UHGV virus genome: UHGV-0123328
DNA length: 34,442 nucleotides
DNA from: a virus
Strand: one strand, 5' to 3'
Shown here: positions 6,627 through 14,663 of the stretch, piece by piece
Layout: each line of letters opens with the position of its first letter
Position numbering within the stretch: the stretch's first letter is position 1
Made by a program: the position numbers and the translations under genes
Notes under the pieces: model-generated
Told to the model about the DNA's origin: nothing
Seen by the model: the letters and a program-made list of their open reading frames with translations, nothing else
The model's database searches: none

Positions 6627-6654
6627 TTAAGACCACCAGCATTGGTGGTCTTAA
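6627..6654 (+). terminator. Stem-loop TTAAGACCACCA-gcat-TGGTGGTCTTAA (putative terminator or RNA processing/stability element)
   Basis: 12-bp perfect stem. A covarying twin occurs at 7098-7125. Confidence 0.5.
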
Positions 6655-7097: not shown

Positions 7098-7125
7098 TTA
7101 AGGCCACCAATGCTGGTGGCCTTAA
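7098..7125 (+). terminator. Stem-loop TTAAGGCCACCA-atgc-TGGTGGCCTTAA
   Basis: 12-bp perfect stem, compensatory to the 6627-6654 copy (A:T pair replaced by G:C). Confidence 0.5.
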
Positions 7126-9614: not shown

Positions 9615-10136
9615 TTAAAACGGAAGGATTCGTTCAACCCAATCGAAGAAAATAAGAATTTTTCTGCCGTCTTTCAACTTAAGTGTGACTAGGCAGGCAT
9701 CAACGCCATCTGACGTTCCCTCAATTTCGCGGCCGTCTGCCATGTAGACCCTTATAGATTGGCCGTTTTGATAAGCCTTGCGACATATCTTAAAAAAATC
9801 ACGACGTGATGGCTGGTTGTCTACATAGTCAGGGTGTATTGTTAGTCTCCCTTTGAAATCGTAATCAATGCCATCAATTACGCCTGATTCAATTGTGCTA
9901 ATGCGCTCAAGTGGGAGCCTTATACGATTTTCTTTGTCAAATGGAGTTGGACAAAGGTCAACTTTGTTACGAGATGACATGAGACCATAAACGTACATGC
10001 AAAACACTTGGCCGTCTTCGAGAGTGACTCTTACAGGAAATTTAGCCCCCCGCCAGAAGAGCAAGGTGCGTTCAGCATGTTCGTAGTCTCGCGGCCATAC
10101 TTCAGCCGGTATGCCGTAGGTGATGTCTTTAACCAT
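9615..10136 (-). CDS. Hypothetical protein (173 aa) with an internally repeated (R)VxLxDG motif
   Basis: ORF with its own terminator. Motifs VRVTLEDGQ, IRVYMADGR and VTLKLKDGR suggest repeated small beta-rich units. Confidence 0.6.
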   Translation of the reverse strand: MVKDITYGIPAEVWPRDYEHAERTLLFWRGAKFPVRVTLEDGQVFCMYVYGLMSSRNKVDLCPTPFDKENRIRLPLERISTIESGVIDGIDYDFKGRLTIHPDYVDNQPSRRDFFKICRKAYQNGQSIRVYMADGREIEGTSDGVDACLVTLKLKDGRKILIFFDWVERILPF

Positions 10137-10238: not shown

Positions 10239-11039
10239 ATGAAGAATGGGATGAATAAAAAATACTCATTAGCATTGTTAATAGCGGCTTTACTATTAAC
10301 AGGTTGTGATTCTGATGAAGAGCGAGCCATAAATCTAGTTGAAAAGGATATTCGCTCTACACTGCTAGATCCTGATGCTGGTCGGTTCACGAATATGCGA
10401 GCTATTCAGTTAGGTGAAAATAGCTATTCATATATGGTATGTGGAGAGGTGAATGGCAAAAACGTCTTGAACGCCTATACAGGTGCGACCGCATTCAATG
10501 CACACATCTTTGATGTTCGTGAACGTAACCCGATTGTATTCGTTACAATGGATAAAAGTACCAACTCGGCAAGAGAACGATTACGTTTTGAACGCCAAAA
10601 TCTAGCATGTAAAGAAAATGGTGTGAAACTTTATCTGGAAAACGAATCTAAAATCAGGAAGGAAAAAGAGAAAATAGATGATTTAAAAAAAACTCCATTA
10701 GGTCAGGCTGTGTTTGATGCTGCAAGTGACTCGACATATGTGAGTAGAGAGTTGGGCGAATCGAGAGGTGTTAGTGAAGTGTATGCAAGAGAAAATGATA
10801 AATATGCCCTTGTTAGCGTCACCAATTATGACACTCCTGACTTTTACAAATTTAGGAAAAAAGACAACGGTGAATTAGAACCTGTTAGAGGGCTGTCTTA
10901 TACCGGCTATCCATTCGCAGTTGCGCTGTGCCATTCTGAACAAACAGATTATGACAAATGCATAACAGAAGAAGAAATCAGGTTGCTTCGAGACGAAAAG
11001 AATAAGCTCGACGATTTTGTCGTACCACCAGAAGAATAA
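10239..11039 (+). CDS. Predicted lipoprotein (266 aa; alternative start ATG 10251)
   Basis: N-terminal signal peptide ending in the lipobox LLTGC; Lys/Glu-rich C-terminal region. Transcribed divergently from the 173-aa gene. Confidence 0.65.
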   Translation: MKNGMNKKYSLALLIAALLLTGCDSDEERAINLVEKDIRSTLLDPDAGRFTNMRAIQLGENSYSYMVCGEVNGKNVLNAYTGATAFNAHIFDVRERNPIVFVTMDKSTNSARERLRFERQNLACKENGVKLYLENESKIRKEKEKIDDLKKTPLGQAVFDAASDSTYVSRELGESRGVSEVYARENDKYALVSVTNYDTPDFYKFRKKDNGELEPVRGLSYTGYPFAVALCHSEQTDYDKCITEEEIRLLRDEKNKLDDFVVPPEE

Positions 11040-11097: not shown

Positions 11098-11140
11098 ACG
11101 CCCTCGACAAATCTTTTTGGTATCGTCGAGGGCGTGTTTC
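11098..11140 (+). terminator. Stem-loop (11-bp perfect stem ACGCCCTCGAC / GTCGAGGGCGT, 16-nt loop) after the lipoprotein gene
   Basis: Perfect inverted repeat followed by GTTTC; weak T-run. Confidence 0.4.
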
Positions 11141-11427
11141 AGATATGCATCCTATTGAACTCTTCAGATTTATAGGTAGATAGCGTTAATTGGCGTTTTT
11201 GTTCTTCTCTTTTTTGCAAATTTCATCACATGCAATATCATCTACTATATTTCTTAGGTCACACGTTTTTATAAATTGTCGCATATATCCTCCGAATTTC
11301 TTCGGAGACGAAGCCTACAAATATCATTCAGCCTATCAAGATCTTTTTTTTTCAGCCGAAGGTATATACATTCAAAAATGTGATGAGTGTCACATGCAGG
11401 TGCTCTCATACACCTGCATGTAGACTA

Positions 11428-11994
11428 TTAATCATTCAATAATCTATATTTTCTTTTGATTAAATCTTCACCTTTTTTGGTGAACACAAAACCAAATTGC
11501 GATTTTTTGTTCAGCCTAAGGACTCTGTTATCCAACGCATCGGTTGATGGAATCAATGTTTGATCATCTATCCAATTAAGTAGCGTAAGAAAGTTCAGCA
11601 GCCTCAACGTTGTTGTGCGAAGCTCTTTCGATATATTTTCAATGCTGGCAATTCGTCTTTCTTTTTTCTCAGGTGGTACAGATAATTGTTCTTGAGGTTT
11701 CGTGGATAGATAATCAATTTCGTTTGCAGCATCGAATGATATGTGTGGCGTTATTTTGCTAAAAAAGCCTTTCGCTGACTCACTTGATAATAAACCAGAC
11801 CTATTCATATCGTTTGTTATTCTGTACAGGAGTGGACTGTGTTTCATTTCAGGATAACGTTGATAAAAGTTAAGCAATTCAAAAGCAGCATTAGCGCCAA
11901 CAAGAAAATCAGAAGGATCGCTGACTTTCCAGAAAGAATGATTTTTCTTAGCGCCAGTGGTGTCAACAAATGATAATTCTTTTAACCAACTCAT
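11428..11994 (-). CDS. Hypothetical protein (188 aa from ATG 11994; ORF track start 12027)
   Basis: Last gene of the minus-strand helicase operon. AAAGGAG Shine-Dalgarno before ATG 11994. Inverted repeat CATGCAGGTG-N8-CACCTGCATG (about 11394-11421) downstream. Confidence 0.6.
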   Translation of the reverse strand: MSWLKELSFVDTTGAKKNHSFWKVSDPSDFLVGANAAFELLNFYQRYPEMKHSPLLYRITNDMNRSGLLSSESAKGFFSKITPHISFDAANEIDYLSTKPQEQLSVPPEKKERRIASIENISKELRTTTLRLLNFLTLLNWIDDQTLIPSTDALDNRVLRLNKKSQFGFVFTKKGEDLIKRKYRLLND

Positions 11995-12027
11995 GATGTG
12001 CTCCTTTCTAACAAGTGAGCACATCAT
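11993..12027 (-). promoter_or_regulatory. Perfect 11-bp inverted repeat (ATGATGTGCTC / GAGCACATCAT) enclosing the ribosome-binding site and start codon of the 188-aa gene
   Basis: On the mRNA strand: AUGAUGUGCUC-acuuguuagaaag-GAGCACAUCAU-G. The Shine-Dalgarno sits in the loop/stem junction and the AUG at the 3' end of the stem. Confidence 0.5.
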
Positions 12028-12059
12028 AGAATTAGTAGATAGGGGGTAAATATGAAATG

Positions 12060-12338
12060 TTACGGCAACCTGCTCAGTATTTCCTCTAAATCTTTTTTTG
12101 TCATATTGGAGTTTTCATAGATGCGCATGATTTTCTCACGCGTCTTAGCGGAAACCCCAACAGCAGATGTGACTTTGTCAAATTCAGCCATAGTCATCGT
12201 CTCCAGAATGGCATTGATAACTTCAGCCTTAGACATCTTGATTTTTTTCTCTTTGAGTTTTATTTGAAATTTTCCAAGTTTTTCATTGGCCTTATCAGAC
12301 AATGCCACTTGGCAATAAGTTGTTTTCTTTTCGCTCAT
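12060..12338 (-). CDS. Hypothetical small protein (92 aa), Lys/Glu-rich
   Basis: ORF starting 3 nt after the helicase stop (translational coupling). Confidence 0.55.
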   Translation of the reverse strand: MSEKKTTYCQVALSDKANEKLGKFQIKLKEKKIKMSKAEVINAILETMTMAEFDKVTSAVGVSAKTREKIMRIYENSNMTKKDLEEILSRLP

Positions 12339-12340
12339 AA

Positions 12341-13900
12341 CTAATCTCGTTTCAGAACTCCAAAATCGAATGCGCCATCAATAGGCAATACACCTTCTGC
12401 AAAGCCAGGTGTGGTGTCGATGATGTGTTTTCGCTCATAAGAGTGAGACAACAGGTATTTGTTGCTAATGTCAATGAAATCAGTGATAAAACACACGTTT
12501 GCCTGATTCTTCTTGGCTCGTAAGCCACGACCGACACGCTGTCTCATTTCAACTTCTGCTTTCCCACCACCAGCAAGAATGACCGCACCAACGCTTGGCA
12601 CATCAACACCAACATCCAGAATAGTCGAGCCTATTAAAACATCTATTTCACCAGACGCTAAACTGTTCAGCTTTGCTTGCCTTGTCGACTGGTTCGATTC
12701 CCCATAAATGAAGTCAACTCTAAGGCCGGACTCTTTCATCATTTCCATCAGGATTTGCCCGTGGCGTTTAAGACGAACCAGAGTCATACAATTGAGAGAA
12801 TGTTGCTTATAGAGCAATGCTTCGCGAACAATGGCCTCATTACGTCCCAAATTATACACGATCCCCAACTGATAAGCCTTTTGGTAGGCTGTGCTCATAC
12901 CTACTCTAAAATTGAGGTGTTTGTTGGCAAGTTCCGCCTTTATTCTGACCTCGTCTGGCTTGTAGGCAACTTTATGATAAAGGAAGTACGGTTTTGCCAG
13001 AATGCCTCGATCAATCAGGTACTTTTCTGTGACTTTGATTTCAATTCGCCCAGCCACAGCCATCAGACGCATGTTGGCTTCTGTAGAATCCTTCATGAAC
13101 GGCGTGGCCGTAAGTGCCAGACGATAGTCTGCGTTCACACATAATCTGGCAATGTCATAGAAATTAGAACCTGAAGACTCATGCGCCTCTTCCAGAATAA
13201 GCAGAGACACACTTGAAAGGAAGCGTTTCACCAAGTCCCGACGTTTGAGGTGGTAGCTCTTCTTATCTGGAGTTGCATCGCGTGGTGGTTCTTCAAGGAA
13301 ACTTGCCAGAGTTTGAACTGTAGCGACGTTGATATGTCGTGATACCTGGAACTCACCAGAGCCAATGACTCCAACCTTTTGGTCTTTTAACCACGGTTCG
13401 CCATTTTCGGCGCGGTAGTCGATGGATCTCTGGAAGTTTTCGGCCATTTGAAACATCAGAACAGAGCGGGTTGTTAAAAATAATGTCATTCGACCGATAC
13501 GTGCAGCTGCTTTGCAGGCAACATTAGATTTCCCGCCACCAGTAGCGATCTGCGCAATCATCATTCCCTCTCGAACCAGTGTTTCCACAGTCTGATCCTG
13601 ATACGCATAATCAGGATTGTATGGGAATGGGTTAACCGCCGGATTTGGTTTACCAAGCGCCGGGGCTTTGTCTTTGCGGATATGAACACATTTGATGCCC
13701 GCCTTGTTCAAGTTCGCCGCTACAGGCTTGGCAAAGCCAGCAGGGAACGAGTTTTTACTCCAGTTGAACATCGTGCTTGTGCCCTTCCAGTCGCCAGTCT
13801 CGACTTCGTAGCTCAACATCTGTTGCACCATTTGCTTTACCTTGTCATCTGCGCCAGAAATAAGCGCATTAACTGCGTTAGATACAATCCGAACAGTCAT
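12341..13900 (-). CDS. Superfamily 2 DEAD/DEAH-box helicase (519 aa), probable phage replication/recombination helicase
   Basis: Motif I ATGGGKS, motif II LILEEAHE, motif III LTATP and motif VI QRVGRGLR. AAGGAAAGAGG Shine-Dalgarno before the ATG at 13900. Confidence 0.8.
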   Translation of the reverse strand: MTVRIVSNAVNALISGADDKVKQMVQQMLSYEVETGDWKGTSTMFNWSKNSFPAGFAKPVAANLNKAGIKCVHIRKDKAPALGKPNPAVNPFPYNPDYAYQDQTVETLVREGMMIAQIATGGGKSNVACKAAARIGRMTLFLTTRSVLMFQMAENFQRSIDYRAENGEPWLKDQKVGVIGSGEFQVSRHINVATVQTLASFLEEPPRDATPDKKSYHLKRRDLVKRFLSSVSLLILEEAHESSGSNFYDIARLCVNADYRLALTATPFMKDSTEANMRLMAVAGRIEIKVTEKYLIDRGILAKPYFLYHKVAYKPDEVRIKAELANKHLNFRVGMSTAYQKAYQLGIVYNLGRNEAIVREALLYKQHSLNCMTLVRLKRHGQILMEMMKESGLRVDFIYGESNQSTRQAKLNSLASGEIDVLIGSTILDVGVDVPSVGAVILAGGGKAEVEMRQRVGRGLRAKKNQANVCFITDFIDISNKYLLSHSYERKHIIDTTPGFAEGVLPIDGAFDFGVLKRD

Positions 13901-13982
13901 AAACCTCTTTCCTTAGTGCCTTTTGTATGTTATTTGGCTATTATAATAAGTAAGTGATTACTTAGTGGATTGTAGCAATAAA

Positions 13983-14663
13983 ATGGATGTAAAAATCACG
14001 ATTTTGCAGGTTGATGTTGCCAACCTTCGCCCGAATACCTGGAACACCAATTCGGTTGGTGCGCAGAATTTTGAAAAACTGAAAGGTTCTATCGAAAAAT
14101 TGGGCTTTTTTAAGCCAATTTTGGCTCGTGAACTTGAAGATGGATTTTTTGAAATCCTCGGCGGCGAACATCGCTGGCGTGCTGCTATTGAGCAAGGAAT
14201 TTCAACGGTTCCGGTGCTTTCTGTGGGCAAAATTAGCGATGTCGTAGCTAAACAGATGTCACTGGTGGACAACGAGCGATACGGTGAAGACGACCAAATC
14301 GCATTGCAACGCTTCATTGAAGAAATTCAGTCAGAACTTGACTATCAACTGTCTGAAATCGCCCCGTATGACGACGAAATCTCGATGGTTTTAGCAAAAG
14401 AGGCGGCAATCGACCTTGAAGCACTGGAGGCGTTGTCTCGTGGTAGTGATGAGCCTGTCGATACCGACAAACGAGAGAAAACCGAACGTGTCGGTGCGGA
14501 ACATCAGACCATGCGCTTCAAAGTAACTTTCGATGCGTCAGATCGCGTTGCAGAAACCATAAAAAACATCATCAAAGACCAGGCAATTAATACTGGCAAT
14601 GAAATGGAAAACGCTGGTGAGGCTCTGGTGTGGCTGGTCGACTACTACAAGGAGCGTATGTAA
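13983..14663 (+). CDS. ParB/Srx N-terminal-domain protein 1 (227 aa from ATG 13983; ORF track starts at GTG 13965)
   Basis: ParB-like N-terminal signature region (…FEILGGEHRWRAAIEQGISTVPV…); acidic C-terminal half. Confidence 0.65.
   Translation: MDVKITILQVDVANLRPNTWNTNSVGAQNFEKLKGSIEKLGFFKPILARELEDGFFEILGGEHRWRAAIEQGISTVPVLSVGKISDVVAKQMSLVDNERYGEDDQIALQRFIEEIQSELDYQLSEIAPYDDEISMVLAKEAAIDLEALEALSRGSDEPVDTDKREKTERVGAEHQTMRFKVTFDASDRVAETIKNIIKDQAINTGNEMENAGEALVWLVDYYKERM

Follow-up and report, generated by a model that had tools for sequence, protein, structure and literature searches.

The UHGV virus genome UHGV-0123328, a stretch of 34,442 nucleotides (nt) that we call the window in its full length, carries an inverted repeat at positions 11993-12027, at the start of a minus-strand gene for a protein of 188 amino acids (aa). 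On the basis of folding predictions and of conservation among relatives, we propose that the hairpin formed by this repeat in the transcript masks, in cis, the region where translation of the 188-aa gene initiates; together with the downstream steps set out below, we consider this the probable function of the element. The window is an SSU5-like phage-plasmid: its positions 11400-14000 share 98.9% identity with Escherichia phage Cyrano (pLF82), and the local kilobase is matched by 227 PLSDB plasmids. A helicase gene and an open reading frame (ORF) of 92 aa precede the 188-aa gene, in that order and all on the minus strand. No description of the hairpin was found in the literature searched.

A repeat search returned the same perfect 11-bp arms and 13-nt loop as the original prediction, with complementarity at 11 of 11 positions. 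On the mRNA (minus) strand they read ucuAUGAUGUGCUC-acuuguuagaaag-GAGCACAUCAU-G or, equally, AUGAUGUGCUC-ACUUGUUAGAAAG-GAGCACAUCAU-G. The 3' arm does contain the GAG of the Shine-Dalgarno (SD) sequence and does reach the start codon, as had been claimed, ending with the AU of the AUG. The RNA stem, moreover, exceeds the 11 bp first described: 8 bp, a 1-nt bulge, 11 bp and a further 3 bp within the loop make up about 22 bp, and in both the minimum-free-energy (MFE) and the centroid structures the SD, the AUG at 11994 and codons 2-3 all lie inside the stem. The lower helix includes two G.U pairs, and is thus RNA-specific on the minus strand.

The core hairpin has a predicted free energy of -20 kcal/mol, or -29 kcal/mol in its context, and the surrounding 116-nt region folds with z = -3.2 relative to shuffles. 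Opening positions -14 to +5 is predicted to cost 25.1 kcal/mol, which ranks first among the 122 annotated coding sequences of Cyrano (median 5.9, standard deviation 3.4); if the RNA begins at loop base 12016, and so has no 5' arm, the predicted cost of this short form drops to 3.1 kcal/mol. With predicted energies of this size, the stem over the SD and start codon is much too stable to leave translation unaffected, and a fold of -20 to -29 kcal/mol in that position implies that read-through RNA would be very poorly translated. The earlier claim that the stem would gate translation is therefore supported as far as masking is predicted, but not in the form of gating by coupling to the 92-aa ORF, which is discussed below. 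Release by temperature, as in the RNA thermometers of the ROSE and fourU types, was rejected, as the opening cost is 27.5 kcal/mol at 30 C, 25.1 at 37 C and still 23.2 at 42 C. The second most occluded start in Cyrano, that of CYRAN_90 (a DUF4942 protein; Cyrano 82935, L095 ~32935), lies outside the window and has an opening cost of 18.8 kcal/mol against the median of 5.9.

A perfect stem of this length had also been thought unlikely by chance. For the repeat itself this holds only mildly: counting perfect inverted repeats of at least 11 bp with loops of 3-30 nt, 60 windows simulated with a first-order Markov model give an expectation of 0.32 per window and at least one in 22% of the simulations, so that repeats of such length are not rare; the real window has six. 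It is the position of the stem and its conservation that go beyond chance, as reflected in the first rank among 122 starts and in the folding z score.

The 188-aa proteins form a small family confined to SSU5-like phage-plasmids. We distinguish four groups: clade 1, to which the window belongs; clade 2 (about 41% identity), found in Klebsiella, Enterobacter, Salmonella, Citrobacter and Cronobacter; the P0044 type (about 35%); and clade 3 (about 25%), which has the same synteny as the other groups. Our survey comprised about 60 loci with about 23 distinct upstream sequences, drawn from IMG/VR, metagenomes, GTDB, PLSDB and Logan. A hairpin lies over the SD in every intact homologue examined, in each case with a 3' arm that begins at the GAG of the SD, the stem thus being conserved along with the gene. 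Clade 2 and the P0044 type have a stem (CAUCAUGUGCUC/GAGCACAUGAUG) of 15-18 continuous pairs, including codons 2-3, around a loop of 13, 14 or 25 nt, while in clade 3 it is shorter (UUUCAUCUC/GAGAUGAGA, 6-9 bp) and stops 4-6 nt short of the AUG. The arms are 82-89% identical between clades, compared with 26% for the loop and 52% for the spacer that precedes the stem; between clades 1 and 2 the 5' arm is 82% identical despite being non-coding. A pattern scan of IMG/VR with two 8-nt arm cores was dominated by chance matches and gave no new genomic context.

The reading of the stem as a mask depends on which start codon is used. Both the ORF list for the window and the Cyrano record (OV696614, CYRAN_116, window 11428-12027) begin the gene at the ATG at 12027, inside the 5' arm, giving a product of 199 aa. 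That codon has no SD, is out of frame in relatives with a 14-nt loop and yields an N-terminus that is not conserved; the motif M-S/N-W/Y-L-x-E-L-S/P-F-V is conserved only from the AUG at 11994 (clades 1 and 2 and the P0044 type), with the core L..LPF alone kept in clade 3. We therefore regard 11994 as the correct start, as the original prediction assumed, and the mis-annotation in Cyrano, 199 aa on record, can be corrected to 188 aa. RefSeq-type entries, along with the comparative evidence, likewise favour the 188-aa start over the deposited CYRAN_116. The features of the region are collected in Table 1.

Table 1. Positions in the window of the hairpin, its parts and the genes around it.
Feature	Position	Strand	Remarks
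DEAD/ResIII superfamily-2 helicase	12341..13900	-	first gene of unit; divergent from two ParB-like genes
92-aa ORF, phrog_1466	12060..12338	-	upstream of 188-aa gene; most abundant RNA of unit in Cyrano
G-free pyrimidine-rich spacer	12028..12059	-	between 92-aa stop and stem
Lower helix, 5' strand (ACUAAUUC)	12029..12036	-	in MFE and centroid structures; U12028 is a bulge
5' arm of core stem (AUGAUGUGCUC)	12017..12027	-	non-coding; holds spurious ATGs (12027, 12024)
Loop (ACUUGUUAGAAAG)	12004..12016	-	final four bases AAAG start the SD; length and sequence variable in relatives (13, 14, 25 nt)
SD, AAAGGAG	12001..12007	-	6 nt before AUG; invariant in clades 1 and 2
3' arm (GAGCACAUCAU)	11993..12003	-	GAG of SD, 6-nt spacer, AU of start codon
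True start AUG of 188-aa gene	11992..11994	-	supported by conserved N-terminus and 14-nt-loop relatives
Lower helix, 3' strand (GAGUUGGU)	11985..11992	-	G of AUG and codons 2-3; pairs with 12029-12036
188-aa gene	11428..11994	-	predicted N-terminal helical domain, disordered linker, C-terminal MerR-like winged helix

The pattern of substitutions in the stem favours function as RNA rather than as DNA. Between clades 1 and 2 one pair is swapped from G-C to C-G; a G-C pair has become G.U in L045, and a G.U pair is also found in L088. In the stem extension of clade 2, the pair that involves the synonymous third base of codon 2 alternates between G-C, G.U and A-U, and in clade 3, where the pairs were taken from individual folds, there are exchanges of C-G with U-A and of U-A with U.G. 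In a register test the proportion of paired cells is 87.9%, and sliding the partner strand lowers it to 23-47%. These patterns have to be set against the possibility that the repeat is a double-stranded DNA operator, bound by the 188-aa protein in autoregulation or by the 92-aa protein. The arms are near-invariant, beyond what pairing needs, symmetric changes of half-sites from G-C to C-G fit a palindrome as well as a stem, and the 188-aa product has a predicted MerR/Par/RacA-like DNA-binding domain and a flexible linker. However, the length of the loop, and hence the spacing of the half-sites, varies (13, 14 or 25 nt between arms that are identical, and 13-17 nt in clade 3), which is hard to square with an operator bound by a dimer; in addition, the G.U pairs of L045, L088 and the lower helix break the symmetry of the DNA while keeping the pairing of the RNA. 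The half-site 8-mer occurs in the window only as the two arms, and a search of both strands of the whole 108-kb Cyrano genome for 9-12-nt mimics of the 3' arm or complements of the 5' arm region gave a single 11-mer, in coding sequence, with about 1.2 expected, so that no regulon of further half-sites emerges beyond chance. The transcript, moreover, would fold even with a protein bound to the DNA. An operator thus seems quite improbable to us as the function of the repeat. As for the 92-aa protein as the ligand, it has no sequence match in Pfam or PDB, and a guess that it is a ribbon-helix-helix protein found no match in these searches; its AlphaFold2 model has a predicted local distance difference test (pLDDT) score of 50.6 and is unusable.

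Transcript levels around the hairpin are available for Cyrano from a published re-analysis of LF82 RNA-seq, at gene level and in five conditions (PMC9928086, S1 Table). Expressed as log2(FPKM+5), where FPKM is fragments per kilobase per million mapped reads, the helicase has values of 5.0-8.4 (FPKM ~28-326), the 92-aa gene 6.3-9.9 (FPKM ~75-977) and the 188-aa gene 2.3-5.9 (FPKM ~0-53) (PMC9928086). The authors of that study flagged the 92-aa gene as 12-fold over the prophage background and listed it as a 'moron' (PMC9928086). From the 92-aa to the 188-aa gene, that is, across the hairpin, RNA drops 7-40-fold, by a ratio that shifts about five-fold among conditions, and RNA of the 188-aa gene is also 3-15 times below that of the helicase. 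At gene level, the hairpin therefore marks a transcript boundary, and the genes do not form a smooth operon; the description of the 188-aa gene as the last gene of a helicase or replication operon needs to be qualified accordingly. RNA of the 92-aa gene is 2-4 times as abundant as that of the helicase directly upstream, which suggests an internal promoter or 3'-proximal stabilisation by the hairpin.

At the resolution of these gene-level data, upstream RNA exceeds downstream RNA and the boundary falls at the stem-loop, as is expected of a stabiliser or a barrier to 3' exonucleases. The step may arise by termination, by processing, or by decay or Rho polarity after a block of translation. We have therefore considered whether the hairpin might do no more than end the helicase/92-aa transcript, be it by atypical termination, by processing or by halting exonucleases, in which case its overlap with the 188-aa start would be incidental. 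The sharp step-down and the peak of RNA in the gene directly 5' of the hairpin are what such a 3' end would give. A canonical terminator or a GC-rich hairpin also follows the 92-aa-type gene immediately in SSU5, the L066 type and clade 3, and a 3' structure after this gene therefore seems to be a requirement of the backbone. The 188-aa gene itself occupies a variable accessory slot, in which relatives have other cassettes or a terminator; where another cassette follows the 92-aa gene the hairpin is missing, and a canonical terminator or other structure takes its place. Remnant hairpins, finally, outlast loss of the gene. These remnants (L002/L072 and L083), however, are decaying, with stems reduced to 9 bp from 11-18 bp; at L009, a locus truncated by an insertion sequence, the stem is still intact. 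The hairpin does not conform to an intrinsic terminator either, with its loop of 13-25 nt, its lack of a U-tract and a 3' flank that reads GAGUUGGUUAAAAG, and a terminator scan found none at the site. An Rfam scan of 11300-12500 gave no family at the hairpin, its sole match being a sub-threshold 'drum' element elsewhere (E = 0.49). In every clade the GAG of the SD is where the 3' arm begins, there is covariation between the stem extension and codon 2, and clade 3 has two hairpins, one that masks the SD and a separate one at the operon end. Since a fold of the predicted stability over the SD and AUG must also block initiation, we judge a role as a 3' end alone to be unlikely, and take masking to be the primary function, with the step-down in RNA as its consequence, a partner function, or both.

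Two variants of the structure that follows the small gene are worth recording. In clade 3 (L085 2378-2420; L096, L098, L099 and L101) a strong GC-rich hairpin invariably comes after the small gene (117-121 aa) that succeeds the helicase; this hairpin is of different sequence in every variant but of conserved structure, with no U-tract after it. In variants with a lipoprotein cassette (L005 ~1430-1460; L073-L084) a 7-bp hairpin, GGGAGAC-AAAGAUGAA-GUCUCCC, lies downstream of the 92-aa stop and has the PGAP start codon in its loop; the signal peptide suggests the next AUG as the real start there.

The original prediction offered coupling to the 92-aa ORF as one way in which the stem could be controlled: ribosomes translating this ORF, or terminating on it, would melt the stem and thereby switch the 188-aa gene on. 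The genes are adjacent on one strand, with 65 nt from stop to AUG, and masks of a ribosome-binding site (RBS) that translation upstream can open are known elsewhere, as in rpmI-rplT and MS2. Here, however, the entire 5' strand lies in the untranslated spacer. A terminating ribosome reaches about 10-15 nt beyond its stop codon, and the stop of the 92-aa ORF (12062-12060) precedes the base of the stem (12036) by 23 nt and the core arm by 32 nt. The gap between stop and stem measures about 24-30 nt in clade 2 and the P0044 type, and in clade 3 it exceeds 100 nt and contains an intervening hairpin; no ORF preceded by an SD runs through the 5' arm. Tight coupling also predicts the opposite of the RNA levels, in which a highly expressed 92-aa gene is followed by a far less abundant 188-aa message. 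Taken together, this makes coupling very improbable.

Two further arrangements that involve the 92-aa ORF were considered and rejected. A -1 frameshift at the heptamer A AAA AAA G (12099-12093, minus strand) within this ORF is not a conserved mechanism, as clade 2 has no A-run and 14-nt loops break the frame. In the window the -1 frame is open from this slippery heptamer through the hairpin into the 188-aa frame, which would give a fusion protein; this is probably a coincidence. The 5' arm could instead pair with GAGCAGGU in the 92-aa ORF, but clade 2 does not conserve this pairing.

Our proposal for masking can be put as follows. Read-through RNA from the helicase/92-aa unit would carry both arms and fold into a helix of 15-22 bp over the SD, the AUG and codons 2-3. 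Thermodynamic prediction and conservation suggest that 30S subunits could not load on this masked RNA, and from these we infer its function in vivo. The distal cistron, left untranslated, would then lose its RNA through Rho-dependent termination, through decay back to the hairpin, or both, and the hairpin, as a barrier on the 3' side, would at the same time stabilise the 92-aa message. The drop in RNA across the hairpin is consistent with this step, as is the finding that the 92-aa gene has the most abundant RNA of the unit. The result would be that an accessory protein, predicted to bind DNA through a winged helix, is uncoupled from a well-expressed backbone operon and kept very low in the plasmid-prophage state. 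Productive expression would require an mRNA that lacks the 5' arm, and the most economical source of such an mRNA would be a weak promoter with its -10 element in or beside the 5' arm and its start at the junction of arm and loop; this is the least secure step of the proposal.

The spacer contains sequences that could serve such a promoter. It has no G in 32 nt, as is the case in 0.055% of sequence windows, and it includes a conserved block, UUUACCCCC, at 12050-12042 that recurs in all four clades, lying in clade 3 downstream of the separate operon-end hairpin; a C-tract is present in the spacer of all clades. The spacer could be a Rho loading site, a ribosome standby platform or a promoter element. 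A -35-like TTTACC at 12050-12045 and a -10-like TATGAT at 12028-12023, in the 5' arm region, together form the best sigma-70-like site upstream in clade 1 (TTTACC-16-TATGAT), with a predicted start at the first loop base, 12016. The top sites in the P0044 type and in 3/6 clade-3 variants predict the same junction (-1..0) from different hexamers. A T4-like promoter in or next to the 5' arm that yields an unmasked transcript is thus a suggestive candidate, possible though on balance doubtful.

Several points weigh against masking as we propose it. The fold, the block of translation and the 3' end are proposals, all energies are predicted, and the gene-level step-down is equally explained by plain termination or processing with no translational role. 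Independent covariation events are few: within clades 1-2 both partners have changed in 3 pairs, and 76/500 shuffles reach the same pairs-changed value. The sequence conservation of the arms (0.82-0.89) exceeds the need of pairing alone, which hints at an extra constraint, for example a factor or a promoter. At 8.3, the score of the candidate promoter stands near the 90th percentile of the best scores that random 100-nt sequences give; sites of this kind are common (10 found, 5.7 expected), the scores across the clades are no higher than chance would give, and the corresponding site in clade 2 is poor (TTTTCC-15-CATCAT, score 1.3). Without any unmasked transcript, the synthesis of a conserved protein lacks an explanation.

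The surplus of conservation in the arms raises the alternative that the hairpin is an RNA target of a trans factor that opens or locks it. Candidates are an activator of the Mu Com type, a repressor of the MS2 coat type, a FljA-like regulator, RNase III, or a host small RNA (sRNA) that pairs with the 5' arm. The arm sequence is invariant across clades and hosts, perfect duplexes of 15-22 bp are plausible substrates of RNase III, and a FljA-family gene is syntenic with the 188-aa gene in every clade. On the other hand, the loop, the usual determinant of protein recognition, varies in sequence and length, the phage-plasmid contains no complement or mimic beyond chance, and no Rfam family matches. 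The stem is closed already with no repressor, and double-strand cuts by RNase III would separate the SD from the AUG rather than activate the message. We regard a trans factor as improbable.

The FljA-family gene lies 1.3 kb downstream (window 9615-10136, minus strand) and encodes 173 aa that match Pfam Flag1_repress with E = 2e-79; this family is FljA, the repressor of phase-1 flagellin, and in relatives the gene is annotated merely as 'transcriptional regulator'. FljA proteins block translation of fliC mRNA (PMC2652032). The phage-plasmid may silence host flagellin. Between the convergent 188-aa and lipoprotein (10239-11039) genes, perfect 11-bp hairpins at 11392-11421 and 11098-11135 are probably terminators of the converging transcripts, neither having a clean U-tract. 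Further away, two near-identical perfect 12-bp hairpins stand about 470 bp apart on the plus strand, at 6627-6654 and 7098-7125 (TTAAGACCACCA-gcat-TGGTGGTCTTAA and TTAAGGCCACCA-atgc-TGGTGGCCTTAA), and differ by one compensated pair. One is about 150 nt past, and the other directly past, an ORF of about 138 aa, and AATGAC follows both.

The nature of the 188-aa product bears on why its synthesis might be restrained. It is predicted to be a two-domain protein with a MerR-like winged helix and a flexible linker, resembling proteins with MerR/Par/RacA-like DNA-binding domains. A DNA-binding regulator under tight lock is plausible, and there is a weak structural hint of an antirepressor. Taking this further, the protein might be an SSU5-like switch factor, for example a regulator, antirepressor-like or for maintenance, that does harm if its synthesis leaks, with the hairpin as a safety catch released by a conditional promoter in the 5' arm or by a trans factor, for which the syntenic FljA-like RNA-level regulator and a conserved enterobacterial sRNA are candidates. 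We offer this extension as speculation that is unlikely to hold. If it were true, a 35-nt element would be a handle on the decision between plasmid and lytic states in clinically widespread phage-plasmids able to carry antibiotic-resistance genes. E. coli, Klebsiella, Salmonella and related bacteria commonly harbour SSU5/pHCM2-like elements, and resistance genes can be carried by phage-plasmids (PMC9600943). Hardly any work has addressed how the SSU5/pHCM2-like elements are regulated. In this setting, the hairpin stands out as the most extreme start-site masking in a 108-kb genome, tied to one small protein family of such elements, and offers a compact, easily mutated handle on the role of the 188-aa protein and the timing of its synthesis.

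Hairpins that hide a start site have been described in several phage and bacterial systems, with which the present one can be compared. RBS-sequestering hairpins are found in T4 at gene e (lysozyme), soc, 49 and I-TevI, and at mobE of Aeh1; in T4, a promoter in or beside the 5' strand of the helix gives transcripts without that strand (PMC3014915). In this type a helix buries the SD, the AUG or both on a long read-through transcript, whose translation is poor (by about 100-fold for gene e), and the 5' strand of that helix is non-coding RNA immediately upstream. The geometry is the same here, and from the best sigma-70-like site of clade 1 transcription is predicted to begin with the first base of the loop. 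The differences are that the window is a temperate phage-plasmid and not a virulent T4-like phage, that it has no T4 late promoter (TATAAATA) but a weak candidate promoter that is poor in clade 2, that the stem is much longer (15-22 bp) and coincides with a large step-down in RNA, and that the gene encodes a predicted DNA-binding protein rather than a lysis or homing enzyme.

Among phage-plasmids, the immI region of P1 and P7 reportedly uses an antisense RNA, c4, that blocks the icd RBS, with Rho-dependent termination before ant. There, too, a regulatory gene is turned off by RNA pairing over an RBS and lost translation lowers the downstream transcript; however, the anti-RBS strand of P1 is a processed, trans-acting RNA, whereas here it is a cis strand 13 nt upstream. 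The rpmI-rplT pair of the IF3 operon and the coat-replicase and coat-lysis pairs of MS2 likewise hold a distal RBS in a stem, but their masking strand lies within the upstream ORF or within reach of its ribosomes, and not 23-32 nt (or >100 nt) past the stop as here. Intercistronic stem-loops, such as the malEFG repetitive extragenic palindrome (REP) and those of Rhodobacter puf and of pap, set differential mRNA stability in operons, and resemble our hairpin in being stable and in having a more abundant upstream segment, although they usually do not include the SD and AUG of the next gene. In Mu mom, controlled by Com, and in the ROSE and fourU thermometers the start region is also shut by a local hairpin; Com, however, needs a site 5' of the stem and is a dedicated activator, none of which was identified here, and thermometer stems are weak and mismatched, while this stem would take 23 kcal/mol to open at 42 C. 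The masking hairpin of the 188-aa gene thus belongs to an already known type of control: it introduces no new principle, and adds a temperate, plasmid-borne example to the logic of T4.

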